DNA of 64,000 bases from Eledone cirrhosa (taxonomy: Eukaryota), in contig OZ024754.1 of the NCBI GenBank assembly GCA_964016885.1, positions 14,756,001 to 14,820,000 of the forward strand, in the 5' to 3' direction. Shown one piece after another: positions 8,691 through 50,903 of this stretch. The number at the start of each line of letters is the position of its first letter. Within the stretch, counting starts at the first letter, position 1. Made by a program: the position numbers and the translations under genes. The notes beneath the pieces were generated by a model that was given only the letters and a program-made list of their open reading frames with translations, made no database searches and was not told where the DNA came from.

Positions 8691-8793
8691 TATATATATA
8701 AAGTATATATTGAGTTAGAAACTCAAAGTAGTCCCTTACATTTAAATAGCTCAAGGAAAAGATTTTTCCGGGCCTTGTAATATAATTCAATAT

Positions 8794-9171
8794 AATAATT
8801 GTTTCTACTTTTGGCACAAGGCCACCAATTACCCAGTGCATTACTGGTACTTTATTTTATCGAGCCCGTAAGGATGAAAGGCAAAGTTAACCTCGGCGAT
8901 ATTTGAACTCAGAATGGCAAGGGCCGTAACTCTATACGTCAAAGCATGGCGTCCGACCCTCTACCAAAACTGCCAATCCACCTATAATAATTGTTTCTAC
9001 TTTTGGCACAAGGCCAGCAATTACCCAGTGCATTACTGGTACTTTATTTTATCGACCCCGTAAGGATGAAAGGCAAAGTTAACCTATTTGAACTCAGAAT
9101 GGCAAGGGCCGTAACTCTATACGTCAAATCATGGCGTCCGACCCTCTACCAAAACTGCCAATCCACCGCCC
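8794..9171 (-). mobile_element. Two tandem copies of tRNA-headed SINE family 1
   Basis: Sense reads ggcggtggattggcag (A box)...gagttcaaat (B box)...gcctttcatccttacggggtcgataaaataaagtaccagt...gaaacaatta. Confidence 0.85.
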
Positions 9172-9194
9172 TATAATAATCCACCGTCACCTAT

Positions 9195-13916: not shown

Positions 13917-14570
13917 ATATTGAGTTAAGAACTCAATTATTAAAAATGTTAGTTAAGAACTCAATTATTAGAAATGTTAGCTATCGCCGTATTTTGACTA
14001 AAGAAATTAAAGAAATTATTTAGCCTGATAGTGGGGTTAAGAACCCTCGGAGAAATGGAAAAAGATGAGTATTGACGTACATGGGAGTCGAACCCACATA
14101 TTTGGTTATCCGGACCACTGTGCTACCATTTACACCAACACATCACCCGTCTTCTTCCATATGTGGGTTCGACTCCCATGTACGTCAATACTCATCTTTT
14201 TCCATTTCTTCGAGAGTTCTTAACCCCACTATCAGGCTAAATAATTTCTTTAATTTCTTTAGTCAAAATACGGCGATAGCTAACATTTCTAATAATTCCA
14301 AATCCACTCGCTGTTTCGAAAATATTCTTACTTGACATTAGAGTCTCTAAGTTTATAGCTTCTAATTTGAATGGAAGAAGACGGGTGATGTGTTGGTATA
14401 AATGGTAGCACAGTGGTCCGGATAACCAAAGATGTGGGTTCGACTCCCATGTACGTCAATACTCATCTTTTTCCATTTCTCCGAGGGTTCTTAACCCCAC
14501 TATCAGGCTAAATAATTTCTTTAATTTCTTTCGTCAAAATACGGCGATAGCTAACATTTCTAATAATATA
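13917..14570. mobile_element. Family G element: inverted plus tandem units, each containing a tRNA-like sequence
   Basis: - unit 13964-14158, partial + unit 14159-14296, + unit 14370-14566. Flanked by (TA)n. Relatives at 44627-44810 and 50495-50903. Confidence 0.75.
14387..14458 (+). pseudogene. tRNA-like cloverleaf (not a canonical tRNA) inside family G
   Basis: 72 nt: acceptor GATGTGT/GTACGTC, A box TGGTATAAATGG, anticodon arm TGGT-CCGGATA-ACCA (C33), T arm GTGGG-TTCGACT-CCCAT, T5 run at 14468-14472. Mirror copy at 14073-14144 (-). Confidence 0.7.
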
Positions 14571-22087: not shown

Positions 22088-22926
22088 TGATTAAATCATG
22101 TTTGTTCTTAGATATTATTCAATCTAGGGTGTTTATGCTAGTTGCTATATGGACAGCCATTTGATAAAACATTTGTTTGAGGAACAGTAAAACATTAGTG
22201 TGAAACAGACTAATATTAATCAAAGTTCATTTAAAATAGTAGAAATAAACTGAAGTGAAATGGTTAAATATTTAGAGCGGCCTGTTGAATTGAACAGAAT
22301 ATTTGATATGATACGCGATATCAGTTGGGGCGGAAATGACGCCAGTAATTTAAGTAAAAACGGAAGTTTACACAGACAAAAATGGAACAAAAAGCGTTAA
22401 GAGAATGTGTATGTATGTGTCTGTGCGTGCGTGTATGTGTGTGTGCGTATATGTGTGTGCGCGCGCGTGTGTGTGTGTTCTTTTGTTCTTTTATTCTTTT
22501 ACTGGTTTCAGTCATTAGAGTGCAGCCATGCTGGGGTACCGTCTCATATCGACCATATCGACAATAGAACTTAATTTTTCGAGTCTGGAACTTATTCTAT
22601 TGATTCCTTATTCATGTTTGGTAAAGTACGTAGTTTGCAGCTTAAATTATATGTATATACACGGATAATAAAAAACAAAAAGGACCCATTTCTATTTTTA
22701 TCTACATTATTCATTTTATAAACAACATATGAACAATTCTGATGCATTTGTCCTCGACACCAGCTTCTGGACACAACCACCTTATTCTTGCATGACTGTT
22801 GCAAAGTCCTCTTCTTGGTGAGTATTCGGAATACATCTTCGGATTTATGATAAATTTCTCCCTTCCTCCCAGCTATATTAGTAACCCTTAAAAGGATTAG
22901 ACCTCGGCTCTTCTTTTCTAGACTAA

Positions 22927-23311
22927 ATAATTTTTTCTACTTTAGGCACAAGGCCAGCAATTACCAGTGCATTACTGGTACTTTATTTTATCGACCCCGT
23001 AAGGATGAAAGGCAAAGTTAACCTCGACGGGATTTGAACTCAGACCGTAAAGGGACGTAACTATGCTGGAAAGCATGGCGTCCGACTCTCTACCAATACT
23101 GCCAATCCACCGCCCTATAATAATTGTTTCTACTTTTGGCACAAGGCCAGCAATTACCCAGTGTATTACTGGTACTTCATTTTATCGACCCCGTAAGGAT
23201 GAAAGGCAAAGTTAACCTCGGCGGGATTTGAACTCAGATCATACAGGGAGGTAACTCTATGCTTCAAAGCATGGCGTCCGACCCTCTACCGATACTGCCA
23301 ATACACCGCCC
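22927..23311 (-). mobile_element. SINE family 1 dimer with a 15-bp TSD
   Basis: TSD tctagactaaataat at 22917-22931 and 23312-23326. Confidence 0.9.
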
Positions 23312-24317
23312 TCTAGACTAAATAATGAAGACAAAAGTACAACGTAATATTAGATATGAGGTAAAAACAGCTGTAGCTTCAACAAAGTCATATGGTTAAC
23401 AATTTATAGAGCAGAAGGCCAAAGGCGGATAACAACAAGTGAAGTAACTTTACTGAGAAATATATATCATTGTTTGAGAGTGTTGTCGACAGGGACCACG
23501 AGACGAACGACATATTAGAGTAAGGGTAGGGTGGCAGTCTTCAGAAGAAAGGGGTTATAATGATCACACACGTACACCCCCCCCCCCCGTCCCCTACACA
23601 CACATATACACACATACACATAGCACATTTGCATGTAGTTAAGTATTTTATTAGTATTGGAATAAAATGTGTTTCAACCAATATATGTGAATTGATATAT
23701 TCGATTGTAGAAATCTCTCTAGAAAATCATTTCCTCGCGGTGTTTCGTGAATTTAATCAGAGTAAGTTAACTATTTAATTAGGGGAGATCAGACACCTCT
23801 CCTCAGTTCGGGGCCATCTGGAGGGGAAATACAGTTGATTCCATCTTCCTGCCATTACCGGTACCACCCCACTGACAGAATTGTTAAGATTTATATACAC
23901 ATTATTCACTCCCACAAGATTACTCCATTTTCTCACTTTCTTCTCTCCAGCAGATCTCCAAGACTTATTTTCTTCTTTATAACTCCGGATTCTTATCCGC
24001 CTATTGAGCACTGGCCTCGACACCACCTTCACCCTCCTCCTCCTCCACCCTTCACTCTCCACCTCCCTCCTCCTCCACCCTTCACCCTCCACCTCCCTCC
24101 TCCCTTCCCTCTCCACCTCCCTCCTCCTCCTCCACCCTTCACCATCCTCATCACCCCCCTCCTCCTCCCCACCATCATCATTATCATCATGATTATGATG
24201 ATGATCATCATCATTATCATCACGACCATCATCATCATCATCATCATCACTCACTCTCTCAAGCTCTCGCTGATACACACACACACAAACACACACTCAC
24301 ACACACAAACACATACA

Positions 24318-35170: not shown

Positions 35171-36187
35171 ATTTCAATATTACAGAATTGTTCGACTTAG
35201 ATTAAATTTTACATTTGTGTAGATATTTTTAAATGTACAATCAATCGTAAAGTATGAAAATTAAAGAAAGAAAATGAAAATGAAAAAGAAAAAGACGGAT
35301 AAGCAGCGAAAGAAAGGGAGAGTCACTACGCCCCAGTCAGGTTGATGCCTCAGCCACACCCTGCGACTAAACGGCAAAAGCGTTACCGCCAGAGACACCT
35401 GCTGCAACAGCCACCCTAAAATAATTTTTAAAAACATTTCTTAATTTTTATCCACCTTTCCCCGGGCAAAAGTGGGGTCATGACCCCCTCTTTAGGAAGG
35501 TTTGGCATACAGGAAGCTCCCCTGAGATAACTTCCCAAAGAACATCATCTACGTTGATCTCACATTCTTCCTCTTCTACATCAGACCATTAAAAGAAACA
35601 AATATATATTTCTCTAAGACCCATCCAGATGATTTGGTTGAGAAGTCAACACTTCATAGAACCAATATCTTCTTGATATTTCGGCAGTTAATGGACTAAA
35701 TAGCTTCGAAAGCACTTACCATTAGTTTTTCATATCAAATTACTTTTTCTTTGGCTCAAGAAAAGTGACATTTCTATGACCAGTAAACAAGTCATCTATT
35801 TTACTCTTCTGTACGTTGTGATTGTTGTTGTTTAACCGCAGGTCAGACTTGATATAGACAGACATATGATGACAGTAATCCCTACCGTGACCATCTTATC
35901 ATTTCCCTATGTTCAGGAAACCCCGCATCACATTATTTAACTTGTTTTCTCTAAGTTGCTAGAGTGACTTGAGGGAATTAAAAAATATATCTACCTTTTC
36001 CACATTTTATTGAAATATATTATAAAACATGAGAAAGAATGAATACTCAATGAATACTCAATGAATACTCAATGATACAATAGCGTGGGAGAACTGTCTC
36101 ACTTATTCGGGAGTAAATTATATTTACTACCGTATAATGGTTTGTAATTGAAATAGAAATAGAAACTTCACCATAGTATTTTGACTA

Positions 36188-36572
36188 AATAATTGTTTCT
36201 ACTTTAGGCACAAGGCCAGCAATTACCAGTGCATTACTGGCACTTTATTTTATCGACCCCGTAAGGATGAAAGGCAAAGTCAACCTCGGCGGGATTTGAA
36301 CTCAGATCGTAAAGGGCCGTAACTATGCTGGAAAGCATGGCGTCCGACCCTCTGCCAATCCACTGCCAATCTACCATTATTTTGACTAAATAATTGTTTC
36401 TACTTTTGGCACAGGGCCAGCAATTAGCCAGTACATTACTGGTACTTTATTTTATCGATCCCGTAAGGATGAAAGGCAAAGTCAACCTCGGCGGGATTTG
36501 AACTCAGATCGTAAAGGGACGTAACTATGCTGGAAAGCATGGCGTCCGACCCTCTACCGATACTGCCAATCC
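36188..36572 (-). mobile_element. Two SINE family 1 copies separated by a copy of the target site
   Basis: tattttgactaaataat at 36177, 36378 and 36574. Confidence 0.9.
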
Positions 36573-36626
36573 ATATTTTGACTAAATAATATAGTCTAAA
36601 TGATAAGACAGTAAGCATGAACATAC

Positions 36627-38342
36627 ATGTACACCAGGTCCGAACACAGAGGAGCCAAACTGCCACTGCCATCACCTTCATCTCTCTCACCCTCCCCACC
36701 TCTCATGTACACCAGGTCCGAACACAGAGGAGCCAAACTCCCACTGCCATCACCTTCATCTCTCTCACCCTCCCCATCTCTCATGTACACCAGGTCCGAA
36801 CACAGAGGAGCCAAACTCCCACTGCCATCACCTCCGTCTCTCTCACCCTCCCCACCTCTCATGTACACCAGGTCCGAACACAGAGGAGCCAAACTCCCAC
36901 TGCCATCACCTCCGTCTCTCTCACCCTCCCCACCTCTCATGTACACCAGGTCCCAACACAGAGGAGCCAAACTCCCACTGCCATCACCTCCGTCTCTCTC
37001 ACCCTCCCCACCTCTCATGTACACCAGGTCCGAACACAGAGGAGCCAAACTCCCACTGCCATCACCTCCGTCTCTCTCACCCTCCCCACCTCTCATGTAC
37101 ACCAGGTCTGAACACAGAGGAGCCAAACTCCCACTGCCATCACCTCCGTCTCTCTCACCCTCCCCAACTCTCATGTACACCAGGTCCCAACACAGAGGAG
37201 CCAAACTCCCACTGCCATCACCTCCGTCTCTCTCACCCTCCCCACCTCTCATGTACACCAGGTCTGAACACAGAGGAGCCAAACTCCAACTGCCATCACC
37301 TCCGTCTCTCTCACCCTCCCCACCTCTCATGTACACCAGGTCCGAACACAGAGGAGCCAAACTCCCACTGTCGTCACCTCTATCTCTCTCACCCTCCCCA
37401 TCTCTCATGTACACCAGGTCCCAACACAGAGGAGCCAAACTCCCACTGCCATCACCTCCGTCTCTCTCGCCCTCCCCATCTCTCATGTACACCAGGTCCG
37501 AACACAAAGGAGCCAAACTCCCACTGTCATCGCCTCCGTCTCTCTCGCCCTCCCCACCTCTCATGTACACCAGGTCCGAACACAGAGGAGCCAAACTGCC
37601 ACTGTCATCGCCTCCGTCTCTCTCGCCCTCCCCACCTCTCAGGTACACCAGGTCCGAACACAGAGGAGCCAAACTCCCACTGTCATCGCCTCCGTCTCTC
37701 TCGCCCTCCCCACTTCTCATGTACACCAGGTCCGAACACAGAGGAGCCAAACTCCCACTGTCATCGCCTCCGTCTCTCTCGCCCTCCCCACCTCTCATGT
37801 ACACCAGGTCCCAACACAGAGGAGCCAAACTCCCACTGTCATCGCCTCCGTCTCTCTCGCCCTCCCCACCTCTCATGTACACCAGGTCCGAACACAGAGG
37901 AGCCAAACTCCCACTGTCATCGCCTCCGTCTCTCTCGCCCTCCCCACCTCTCATGTACACCAGGTCCCAACACAGAGGAGCCAAACTCCCACTGTCATCG
38001 CCTCCGTCTCTCTCGCCCTCCCCACCTCTCTTGTACACCAGGTCCGAACACAGAGGAGCCAAACTCCCACTGTCATCGCCTCCGTCTCTCTCGCCCTCCC
38101 CACCTCTCATGTACACCAGGTCCGAACACAGAGGAGCCAAACTGCCACTGTCATCGCCTCCGTCTCTCTCGCCCTCCCCACCTCTCATGTACACCAGGTC
38201 CGAACACAGAGGAGCCAAACTCCCACTGTCATCGCCTCCGTCTCTCTCGCCCTCCCCATCTCTCATGTACACCAGGTCCGAACACAGAGGAGCCAAACTC
38301 CCACTGTCATCGCCTCCGTCTCTCTCGCCCTCACCACCTCTC
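36627..38342. repeat. 78-bp minisatellite, 22 units, derived from family K
   Basis: Unit atgtacaccaggtccgaacacagaggagccaaactcccactg(c/t)catc(a/g)cctccgtctctctc(a/g)ccctccccacctctc. Continues into unique family K sequence at 38343-38460. Confidence 0.95.
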
Positions 38343-38632
38343 ACTATTATGAGCAAATGGGGGTCCCACGTGCTGGCCGCCCCATGGCCCCAGTGGACAG
38401 AATGGAGAAGGTGTTTCCCCGGAGGATGGTAAGGGAGATACGCTGGAACAGTGATTACTCTCACATATCTTCCATTGTATTTGCTCTCTCCTAAATACCA
38501 CCTCTTTTCTCTCTATGTATCCGCCAGTGAAGGTCTCGTGCCCGATGTCCTCTCGTGAACAAACACACTCACACACGTACAGACATAAACACATACACAC
38601 ATACATACATGCATACATACATACACACATAC

Positions 38633-44610: not shown

Positions 44611-44626
44611 CAAGTAAGTATGTTTT

Positions 44627-44802
44627 GAAACAGTGAGCGAGTTTGAAATTAGAAATAGAATAGCTTTCACCCCTCAGATAAATGGAAAAAGATGAGTATT
44701 GACGTACGTCAATACTCATCTTTTTCCATTTATCTGAGGGTTCTAAACTCCATTATCAGGCTAAAATTTCTTTAATAAAAAAATACGGTGAAAGCTATTC
44801 TA

Positions 44803-44810
<8 letters not shown>
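44627..44810. mobile_element. Family G short palindromic copy
   Basis: Palindrome centred on gacgtacgtc (44701-44710), i.e. in the 3' acceptor strand of the tRNA-like part. Confidence 0.65.
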
Positions 44811-46034: not shown

Positions 46035-46886
46035 TTATACTTCTCTTAGGTCAGTGTTGTTTGTTTGGGTATTGTTGTTATTCCATTCATTTTTTCTGTT
46101 TAGCCTTGGCCTTCTAAGTTCTATTTCGCTGGCCTCTCTATGCTGGGTCATTTCTATGTTTAGATATTATTCTAATTTCTATGTTCTCTGTGTTACCGTC
46201 GTGTTGTTGTCTGCCATGTTCGTATAGTACTGAACCGTTTTTTCGTCCTTTTAGTCCCCCAGTGTTGGTCTACCCTTTCACCTATGCTACGAGCTGTTTC
46301 GCCTATGTATGTTGTTGTCATGTTTCTGCAAGTACCCTCTGTACATCTCATGCTATAGATTACGTTTCTGGTTTTACAGTTTATCCGGGGGTTTACTTTA
46401 CATATAATACATTTCCTATCAGTACAGTGGGTTTTCTTAAAAGGGTAGGTTTTGCTGATCAGGGATTTTATGGTGGTTCCTGGCTTTTCTACCACCTTAA
46501 TCTTTAAGTCGGTCTTTCTCAGGGCCTTTCTACACTGGTTAGCTAATTTCCCTCCATGGGTAGCGTCCACAAACATGACACTCTGGTATCTCTGGTTGTC
46601 GTACCATGAGGTGGCTTTCCCTATCTTATGTCTAGTCCTATCTAAGCTATTCCATGATTTGCTCCTGTATAATGGGCAAATTCTTTTCATGTCCAGTTTT
46701 ATGAGGGTCTTATACTTCTCCGTGGTTCCTTCGTATACTCTGATTCTGTCTCTTTGGTTGTAGCCAGAGAACTGCATGCGGTTGATGAAGTGTTGGATGT
46801 GTCTTTCCATTTCTGTTGGGTCGCATATGCGGGACACGTTCTTCATCACTCGTACCAAGCCTGCCATCAGAATATTAAACTTAGCA
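46035..46886 (-). pseudogene. PLE thumb, Cys-rich linker and GIY-YIG endonuclease
   Basis: CTDRKCIIC..C, NVIYSMRC...C...YIGETARSIGERVDQH. After frameshifts, SVLYEHGRQQH and EASEIELRRPRLNRKNEW, stop at 46035-46037 (CCHH and E..N motifs). Confidence 0.9.
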
Positions 46887-47402
46887 CTACATTGCTGAGT
46901 TTTTGAGTATCAGGTATTTGGAGGCCATGGGTTTAGCGTAGTGTGAGTGGAGAATTTGGGCTCTCTCGTCTATAGTGTTAATCCAGAGTTCCGTGTCTAA
47001 TACAGGTAGTCTATTATCAGGGTGTTTGGAAGGGTAGTCGATAGTTACAGTTATACTCTGGTGTATGGAATTAGCTATCTGCTGGATGCTTTCCATTATG
47101 CTACATTCTAAAGCATACTTGTTAGTACTCTCTTGTTGGGGTGTCCTTATTACTATATTGACGTCGTCTACGTAACGAGAGTACATGATGAAGTCTATGG
47201 AGCTCTCATCAAGGAGATCTTTGAGTCTCCTTTCCCACCATACCATAAAAAGATTGGCAACGTCACCAGCTATGCTGACGCCAATGGCTGCTCCTTCATT
47301 TTGGGTGTAGATCTTCTCGTTGAATTTGAATAGGTGGCCCTTTAGGGTAGTTTTGATACTAGCCCCTATTGCATGTGCGACCATTTTTGTTACCTGATCA
47401 TT
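46887..47402 (-). pseudogene. PLE reverse transcriptase (palm/thumb) fragment
   Basis: FKFNEKIYTQNEGAAIGVSIAGDVANLFM, YSRYVDDV, LPVLDTELWI, HYAKPMAS. Frameshift near 46888. Confidence 0.9.
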
Positions 47403-47467
47403 GTTTTTTTTTTTGGGGGGGGGCACATATTCAAATAGTGTGAGTGCGTGTATATATGTACAGGTGG

Positions 47468-47519
<52 letters not shown>

Positions 47520-47522
<3 letters not shown>

Positions 47523-48285
47523 GAATAATAATGAAATTATTGTGTACAGTGCTCAGGTGCATTACAACTCATCAAAGGTGCATGTATAGTAATGGAATGA
47601 TGTTCAAATGTCAGGAAAATGAACCGTGTATGAGTCATAACATACATGTGTGTGTATGTATGGAGGGGGGACATCAGGTGCAGTGTCGGGGACTTCTGGT
47701 GCAGTGTTTGCGCATTTCAGGAAGCATAGAGGTTGTAAAAGATGCAGTCTCTCGGCAGCAAACAGCTGATGCAGGTAGTTTGTTCCATGGAAGTTTTAAA
47801 GGATGCAGTGTCTCGACAACTAACAACTGATGCTGGGAGTTTGTTCCATGGAGGTTTTAAAAGATGCAGTGTCTCGACAGCTAACAACTGATGCAGGTAG
47901 TTTGTTCCATGGAGGTTTTAAAGGTTGCAGTGTCCCGACAGCTAACAACTGATGCAGGTAGTTTGTTCCATGGAGGTTTTAAAGGATGCAGTGTCCCGAC
48001 AGCTAACAACTGATGCAAGTAGTTTGTTCCATGCTTCAGCAACTCTGAGCGTGAAAAAATGTTTCTGAAAGTCAAGGGAGCTGTGCTGTTTTCTAACTTT
48101 GTAGGCATGCCTACGTGTGTTAGACACGTGGAATTCAAAAAGGTGCTCAGGGTTGTTGTTGGCAAGATGGTTAATAATTTTGTGGGTGTTTACCAAGTCA
48201 GTTGCCAGACGTCGGAGCTTCAAAATGTATCCATAGGGTGAAGTAAATCCGTAGAAAACTGGTGAGGGTACCAGAGTCAGCATTC
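47520..48285 (-). pseudogene. 3' end of a CR1/L2-group LINE with an internal ~60-bp tandem array
   Basis: LKLRRLATDLVNTHKII...TRRHAYK...HFFTLRVAEAWNKL. The 60-bp unit repeats about 5 times at 47730-48032. Confidence 0.85.
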
Positions 48286-50494: not shown

Positions 50495-50898
50495 TGTTTA
50501 AACGGCTAGCGAATTTGAAAATTAGGTAGTAACATGTGCTTATGCCGTATTTGACTAAGTAGAATTAGTCTGTTTGTTGGGATTTAAAAAAAAACCTCTG
50601 AATGGGGGGAAAAAGGATGAGTATTGACGTACATGGGAAACGAACTCACACCTTTGGTTTGCCGGACCAGTGTGTTACTATTACATCAATACGCCACCCA
50701 TGATTCCTTTTATTCAGTTAGAAACTATATAATCATAGCAGGTATATAATGTAATGGTAACACATTGGTCCAGCAAACCAAAGATGTGGGTTCGTGTCCC
50801 GTGTACGTCAATACGATCCTTTTTCCCATTCAGAGGGTTTTAAAATCCCGACAGACTAATTGTATTTAGTCAAATACGGCGTAAGCCCGTGTTACTAC

Positions 50899-50903
<5 letters not shown>
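50495..50903. mobile_element. Family G diverged palindromic copy with tRNA-like units at 50625-50695 (-) and about 50740-50810 (+)
   Basis: Anticodon loops CCGGCAA and CCAGCAA, GTTCG T loop, downstream T run. Confidence 0.7.

Follow-up and report, generated by a model that had tools for sequence, protein, structure and literature searches.

The window analysed here is a stretch of 64,000 nucleotides from the 3.0-Gb genome of Eledone cirrhosa, and it holds three insertions of an element whose non-coding monomer of 260-290 nt carries a tRNA-like cloverleaf and no hammerhead; the element is both real and unusual. In the first insertion (13964-14565), 1.5 tandem units of a 271-nt monomer adjoin an inverted arm (13964-14160). 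One complete monomer, non-coding and without a hammerhead core, lies on the plus strand at 14295-14565; monomer positions are counted from its first base (position 1 = 14295), which places the tRNA at positions 93-164. It is preceded on the same strand by a partial monomer (positions 138-271; 14161-14294, 98% match to 14432-14565) that runs into it seamlessly. What an earlier, sequence-only reading had called upstream element sequence in front of the tRNA is thus the preceding 271-nt monomer. The inverted arm, on the minus strand, is a 5'-truncated copy of subfamily A (98% match to 14371-14567), and at its outer end short bits of the element's 3' region were read directly from the sequence in scrambled order (13920-13963, minus strand), from which we infer template switching.

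Within the complete monomer, the cloverleaf with its A and B boxes occupies 14387-14458 on the plus strand (Rfam 36.3 bits, stem covariation). Between it and the 3' end at 14565 lie 107 nt, close to the 110 nt first estimated, and both C33 and the T5 tract (14468-14472) noted at first sight are present. The cloverleaf of the inverted arm (14073-14144, minus strand, loop CCGGATA) scores 40.8 bits against Rfam RF00005, and both are called by ARAGORN. The following features all lie on the plus strand. The leader strand (14369-14386) and the trailer strand (14461-14477, with T5 inside it) form a helix on either side of the cloverleaf. The self-complementary loop bases 32-35 (CCGG, 14418-14421) would supply the helix of a predicted bulge-helix-bulge (BHB), the geometry of which puts the predicted cut between 14423 and 14424. 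Two positions stand out as 5' ends of copies, namely -4 (14383; monomer position 89) and a truncation hotspot in the T-arm (14442-14453) that adjoins A58 (14443). At the 3' side, a stem-loop (14270-14314, with 14270-14276 paired with 14308-14314) surrounds the first of two 3'-end sites, between which lies a 'tail' (14295-14335) of the kind seen in Penelope-like elements (PLEs).

In the case of the second insertion (44611-44808, subfamily B1), there are two inverted arms, both truncated at the end of the acceptor stem, with the tail on the left arm and no cloverleaf. The third (50495-50903, subfamily C) also has two arms: a minus arm (about 50495-50749) with tail and cloverleaf (50625-50695, loop CCGGCAA, Rfam 38.2 bits) and a plus arm (about 50750-50903) truncated in the D-arm, with loop CCAGCAA. 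All three cloverleaves of the window exceed the Rfam tRNA gathering score of 29. Of the three cloverleaf loci first proposed, those at 13917 and 50495 therefore stand, whereas at 44627 only the last acceptor-stem bases remain, although this subfamily does have the cloverleaf at other loci. Similarly, of the anticodons read at first, GGA and GGC belong to subfamily masters, while AGC is most likely a CpG decay of GGC.

The subfamily letters used here are our own. The monomers of the different subfamilies measure 271 (A), 260 (B1/B2), 283 (C), 290 (F) and 285 nt (H), and their longest ATG-initiated reading frames reach 31-59 aa, with none over 59 codons. A and B boxes occur in A, B, F and H, and subfamily C carries T58 in its B box. 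The absence of a hammerhead was borne out: a core-motif search found none on either strand of six subfamily monomers, Rfam returned no ribozyme family in 10 loci, where tRNA was the only structure type of relevance, and longer copies hold only further monomers upstream, with no canonical hammerhead among them. A-like and F-like pieces are also present in contigs of a second organism, and the family thus extends beyond this genome; a metagenome scan for the element gave 0 matches. Elsewhere in the window, a 78-bp tandem repeat (36626-38343) with one frame open for 581 codons is probably a minisatellite.

Regarding mobilisation, an unbiased set of 80 loci was taken in chromosome order (6 overlapping loci of 86 were removed), giving 158 segments; L120 and the second copy in L166 were left out of the end analysis. 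The 3' ends fall at the monomer end in 49 of 158 segments and at +29 to +46 in 68, so that 117 of 158 use one of two sites, about 37 nt apart, and two 3'-end clusters are likewise seen at the subfamily B loci. Both orientations are present in 54 of the 80 loci, and 38 of these 54 use one site per arm. Partial tandems reach 681 nt (3 overlapping loci of 70 were left out of the tandem set). By inspection, the 3' junctions are (TA)n at nearly all loci, with no discernible target-site duplication (TSD) and no poly-A. The inverted and tandem layout, tail and TA-rich flanks described at the outset were thus confirmed. The first 3'-end site is situated in a loop whose stem recurs in every subfamily and shows paired changes between them; this stem-loop is likely an element for recognition and start by the reverse transcriptase (RT), by analogy with the role described in PMC11167929.

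This layout of tail, inversion and partial tandems matches that given for PLEs in PMC8557442, and the two 3' ends match the two internal RT start sites demonstrated in vitro in PMC11167929. On these grounds, mobilisation by a Penelope-like retrotransposon is very probable, and the suggestion of a Penelope-mobilised Pol III element gains support from the hallmarks in the 80 unbiased loci together with the cluster of 5' ends at -4 considered below. A 31-mer from the 3' end has 1,250 exact matches in the genome; their number per chromosome follows chromosome length, which gives no sign of a large source array.

The autonomous PLE with a shared 3' terminus that had been anticipated did not emerge: a profile of the 3' region gave nothing convincing in about 1.0 Mb of sequence searched, and the PLE frames found in flanks were rejected as partners because their 3' sequences are unrelated. 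One such frame lies in the window itself (46196-47552, minus strand), a broken autonomous PLE with an RT followed by a GIY-YIG-like region; a hammerhead-like core lies downstream of it and related copies occur in L069, L081 and L139. It too was discarded as partner, its 3' end being unrelated to the element. On contig C2 (314530266-314622849) we observed a segmental tandem array of about 7-kb units, most of which carry the same element insertion, with no PLE-like reading frame in the stretch read. A further single insertion (L276:1294-1649) has arms with loops of different subfamilies (CTGG and CGCG), which suggests that two RNA templates took part in one event.

The fold of the cloverleaf is retained between diverged copies, as first noted. 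In nine hand-picked copies, the stems are 90.5% paired, 9 of 14 pairs have changed on both sides, and C32 and G35 are invariant. C33 is present and the pair 27-43 is mismatched in A and B. Since the anticodons of the masters (GGA, GGC, CGA, AGA, GGT) and the bases 36-38 (ATA, CAA, TAT) vary, decoding is not the feature that is kept. Bases 32-35, by comparison, are self-complementary in every subfamily master, as CCGG, CUGG, CGCG or CUAG, even among relatives with no more than 54-60% identity in the tRNA body, and this is the only register that self-pairs in all seven masters (36 of the 256 possible four-mers could self-pair). The leader-trailer duplex is also conserved: across six families it has -18 to -25 kcal/mol, a level reached by 0 of 500 shuffles in five of them and by 6 of 500 in F.

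With the loop left unconstrained, the first 100 of 1,504 matches comprised CTGG (44), CCGG (24), CGCG (13), CTAG (2) and 17 others, nearly all of the latter one base away from a palindromic master. When bases 33 and 34 were both forced to differ from CG, CGCG (84) and CTAG (8) dominated the first 100 of 226 matches. Two loop tallies, one whose pattern fixed C32 and C33 and one that selected changed loops, are not counted as unbiased. CGCG characterises the whole young subfamily B2, whose consensus tRNA differs from that of B1 only at bases 33 and 34, and CTAG marks a branch of F with two loci. As CG to TG decay preserves pairing anyway and CTAG is possibly a double CpG decay, CGCG is the sole strongly informative swap, and the independent loop states are few.

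Family H was found with a relaxed pattern. Its tRNA part is 54-59% identical to the others, with different D, anticodon and T stems, and it keeps the leader-trailer helix, T5, the hairpins, the 3' stem, the seamless run-on and the inverted arms. Because the search pattern had forced CSSG, the loops were tallied again without that constraint: the master loop of H is CCGG, with 9 of 26 copies exact and most of the rest CpG-type decays.

Natural palindromes at 32-35 also occur outside these families. L248 and L250 contain clusters of tRNA-Thr-like copies, several of them with the loop CTAGTAA, which are candidates for the ancestral state; co-transcribed copies would possibly form the same motif, and the element may originate from a tRNA-Thr(AGU) whose loop was already CUAG. 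A search for the host source tRNA by the unconstrained H pattern returned only H-type copies, and the Thr(AGU)-like copy of L248 is 54-64% identical to all families. Additionally, L367 and L368 hold lone tRNA-like copies that are diverged, have a CCGG loop and precede a T-tract; they are possibly related to family H and older still.

The 5' ends of the segments are informative about the RNA that was copied. Among the 84 segments that span the D-arm, 35 stop at monomer positions 87-97 and none at 71-86 (binomial p = 2e-17), with 11 stops at -4, 8 at -1 and 5 at +2. At the B loci (overlapping, near-duplicate and F loci left out), 8 of 39 5' ends lie at -2 to -6 and none at -7 to -22; the -4 cluster was not seen in subfamily C (0 of 11). 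Position -4, where the copies end after a pyrimidine, is likely the Pol III start. An end at -4 cannot come from RNase P, so the main upstream peak is not an RNase P product, although some of the -1 and +2 ends may be.

Most copies are shorter still. Of the A segments that reach the T-arm, 76 of 104 stop in it (positions 148-159), whereas in subfamily C, with T in place of A58, 5 of 33 do so (Fisher p = 5e-9); the comparison is confounded by age, C being older than A. A58 is methylated in tRNAs and required in the B box, and the hotspot is probably an RT stop at m1A58. The misincorporation signature of this methylation is absent (1.9% at A58 against a median of 1.2%). Microhomology at CATG was rejected as sole cause: subfamily C shares the CATG yet has no hotspot, and the hotspot also takes in 10 of 26 non-inverted A ends. 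Only 2 of 158 5' ends coincide with the RNase Z site (165), and among 28 segments reaching 147 none ends around the predicted 37/38 cut (monomer 125-135).

Several observations point to a template of one monomer. Among the D-arm segments, 49 of 84 pass -6 and 26 of 84 run seamlessly into a preceding monomer, and all 3 of the 3 segments that reach a second -4 continue past it. At two sites polymorphic at about 32%, the units of a tandem share the minor allele 28 times and are discordant 3 times, as counted from the listing. Rare shared changes number 28 in 6,609 paired sites, where by our estimate roughly one would be expected by chance; 14 of the 28 come from two loci resembling later local duplications. 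Alleles common to tandem units imply a monomeric template, and gene conversion would be another way to such sharing.

To bring these observations together, we propose that two co-transcribed units form a splicing signal in the place of the hammerhead: the host tRNA-splicing endonuclease (TSEN) would cut both units and RtcB would circularise one monomer, which would then likely serve as RT template. We give this model a probability of about 0.6; that it stands for a class of retroelement in which a tandem-activated tRNA-splicing signal replaces the ribozyme and the circle is copied by a Penelope RT appears to us somewhat better than an even bet. In detail, Pol III would start at -4 and read through T5. 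The leader of the first unit would then be missing from the transcript, so that trailer n pairs with leader n+1, as predicted by folding. The 5' half of tRNA n would pair with the 3' half of tRNA n+1 and vice versa, and the two 32-35 palindromes would form a 4-bp helix with 3-nt bulges (36-38) and a C32-G proximal pair, i.e. a 3-4-3 bulge-helix-bulge. TSEN would cut at 37/38 in both units, and the 'intron', exactly one monomer with 5'-OH and cyclic phosphate ends, would be closed by RtcB. A PLE RT/endonuclease would nick (TA)n and begin copying at the 3' stem-loop with its two start sites; by rolling round the circle it would regenerate seamless tandems. Linear transcripts would yield the copies ending at -4, and most cDNAs would stop in the T-arm, probably at m1A58.

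Dimers were folded with 4 duplicate dimers and the F consensus left out. The permuted BHB fold was better than two local cloverleaves by 7.9 (CCGG), 7.1 (CGCG), 4.4 (CUAG) and 2.8 kcal/mol (CUGG), and it lost for 5 of 5 decay loops. For family H it is the unconstrained minimum free energy (MFE) fold; for A, B and C the unconstrained MFE lies more than 10 kcal/mol below both cloverleaf folds. The probability of the 32-35 helix was 0.87-0.98 for CCGG and CGCG, near zero for CUGG, the commonest loop, and 0.22 for H, and it was below 0.1 in 8 of 16 natural dimers. In the predicted dimer fold, a C-G proximal pair at 32, a distance of 6 nt to the 5' cut and a proximal bulge of 3 nt correspond to the arrangement in PMC6614914.

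The TSEN domain PF01974 was found above cut-off in the host genome (3 of 3 matches, two loci). Eukaryotic TSEN is able to splice BHB-type pre-tRNAs (PMC4090602), and retrozyme monomers are circularised by RtcB (PMC7229834). In fly and human, TSEN requires a strong proximal pair and tolerates central G-U pairs (PMC6614914). Eukaryotic TSEN also relies on the body of the tRNA (PMC10485636), which would account for the retention of the entire cloverleaf. Several points speak against the TSEN model: there are no 5' ends at the predicted cut, the free ensemble lacks the 32-35 helix for CUGG and in half of the natural dimers, independent loop states are few, transcripts must pass T5/T6, family D has a lone CCGG, the -4 cluster is missing in subfamily C, A58 has no excess of misincorporation, some tandems (L094, L155) resemble local duplications of later date, no autonomous partner emerged from the sequence searched, and in the fly reporter of PMC6614914, where central G-U pairs are native, fully paired helices lowered splicing.

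Family D (L249, L251-L259, L353-L366) is a fixed-ended 1.7-kb element with a single CCGG unit and no tandem partner at 24 of 24 loci (10/10 and 14/14). It has a subterminal inverted repeat of 173 bp and a terminal hairpin, the loop of which is flipped in one copy (L259), and it resembles a Helentron-type element. Its tRNA-like unit has the loop CCGGCAA and a short leader-trailer helix. This unit may be a captured relic, a reading based on its weak score against the family profile, or a sign of another role of the loop.

The alternative that survives best, unlikely as we consider it, is a linear Pol III element copied by a PLE, with the cloverleaf as promoter only. The palindrome would then be incidental, or a kissing/dimerisation signal that loads two RNAs on a dimeric RT, and tandems would arise from dimer masters, gene conversion or local duplication. 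This agrees with the strong -4 cluster (also 8/39 in B), with the two arms in 54/80 insertions and the two subfamilies joined in L276, with the CCGG that family D keeps without a tandem, and with PMC11167929, where the PLE protein of Anolis is a predicted dimer and the hammerhead proved dispensable in vitro. Against it, the palindrome sits at the sole register giving both the 3-4-3 motif and the 37/38 cut, with C32 and G35 invariant. Further points against it are the homogenisation of tandem units at subfamily and sub-lineage sites, the passage of a second -4 by 3/3 segments, and the spread of subfamily C with T58 in its B box.

Circles could also be made by another route, with RtcB acting after an anticodon nuclease or after a ribozyme that escaped recognition, which we regard as quite improbable. 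The signs of a monomeric template seen in the genome do not tell which nuclease is involved, and the T-arm hotspot could be an RNA cut instead of an RT stop. On the other hand, no known ribozyme was recognised by Rfam or core motif, the hotspot tracks A58 (76/104 vs 5/33), and the register of the palindrome fits TSEN geometry.

Doubtful to a slightly greater degree is the mechanism put forward in the sequence-only reading, in which RNase P and/or RNase Z would cut each cloverleaf and so excise monomers in the place of the ribozyme. The conserved cloverleaf and 14/84 segments starting at monomer 92-94, around the RNase P site (93), would suit it, while 17/84 ends lie upstream of that site (87-91), just 2/158 at the RNase Z site (165), and the palindrome would be left unexplained. 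The conserved helix pairs leader with trailer and covers both cut sites, and the 5'-P/3'-OH ends made by RNase P and RNase Z are not ligated by RtcB. Excision by these enzymes is therefore not supported, whereas the idea of a tRNA mimic replacing the ribozyme is upheld in spirit by the TSEN model.

Finally, an ordinary tRNA-headed SINE, suggested by the A/B boxes and by some copies starting near the tRNA 5' end, is refuted by the segment starts (only 10/158 of the unbiased set at monomer 87-99, with 49/84 D-arm-containing segments reaching further upstream), by the missing poly-A and by the two-site tail and inverted arms of PLE type, which leaves it a negligible chance. The window does contain a SINE, a high-copy 190-bp tRNA-headed family, often dimeric and with short direct repeats (8790-9180, 22926-23315, 36188-36573 and others). 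A 17-nt match between the element and this family at 36176 was dismissed as chance; it falls in the flanking direct repeats of that SINE.

The element can be compared with several known systems. Like non-LTR retrozymes (PMC7229834; bioRxiv 10.64898/2026.07.22.740005), it consists of short non-coding tandem monomers tied to PLEs, and release of a monomer from a tandem transcript with circularisation by RtcB, as described there, is predicted here. It differs in that a host protein acting on a tRNA mimic would make the ends and in its internal Pol III promoter; with no type I hammerhead per unit it falls outside the retrozymes. With EN+ PLEs, including the hammerhead-less Naiad and Chlamys and the non-autonomous MRC1 (PMC8557442, PMC11167929), it shares the two-start-site tail, the inverted 5'-truncated arm, partial tandems, (TA)n targeting and the 3' stem-loop; it is set apart from them by the tRNA mimic, the lack of an ORF and the fact that no autonomous family with the same 3' end was found.

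Regarding processing, tricRNAs (PMC4536317, PMC6614914) likewise have a TSEN cut at 37/38, which here is predicted, a C-G proximal pair and an 'intron' circularised by RtcB. The units of the element are intronless, however, and the 'intron' would be the element itself (about 270 nt, against 113 nt in a fly example), existing only where two units are co-transcribed. In permuted tRNA genes and the tandem pre-tRNA model (PMC3978253), the 3' half of one unit pairs with the 5' half of the next to form a BHB, and an artificial intron-containing tandem was folded and cut in vitro by an archaeal enzyme. By contrast, ours is a mobile element in an animal-size genome whose BHB would derive from a loop palindrome, and the variable anticodons and C33 do not make a functional tRNA of fixed identity as in a permuted tRNA gene. 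Helenus TRIMs (PMC10886601) and tRNA-SINEs are also non-autonomous, and their Pol III promoter likewise derives from a tRNA. LTRs, PBS/PPT and TSDs of 4-5 bp characterise Helenus, whereas in the element 5' ends vary and tandems are partial. In SINEs the tRNA forms the start and a tail with TSDs the end, unlike in the element. In the available descriptions, neither Helenus nor SINEs are PLE-mobilised or proposed to be TSEN-processed. Searches of the openly accessible literature gave no tRNA-bearing PLE parasite and no TSEN-processed mobile element. Even without the TSEN step, a PLE-mobilised tRNA-derived element was not found in the literature searched.

The role of the hammerhead and the regeneration of tandems in PLEs and retrozymes are left open in PMC8557442 and PMC11167929. 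Retention of the PLE layout, with the ribozyme swapped for a signal that leaves identical ends (5'-OH and cyclic phosphate), would argue for circularisation as the function under selection, and this becomes testable with four-base swaps. If true, the element would be a natural non-tRNA substrate for animal TSEN, for which a 2023 review lists no human mRNA targets (PMC10485636). It would also exemplify in nature the tandem route put forward for permuted tRNAs and provide a new design by which circular RNA can be made, and a similar device could underlie other Penelope elements that lack a hammerhead.
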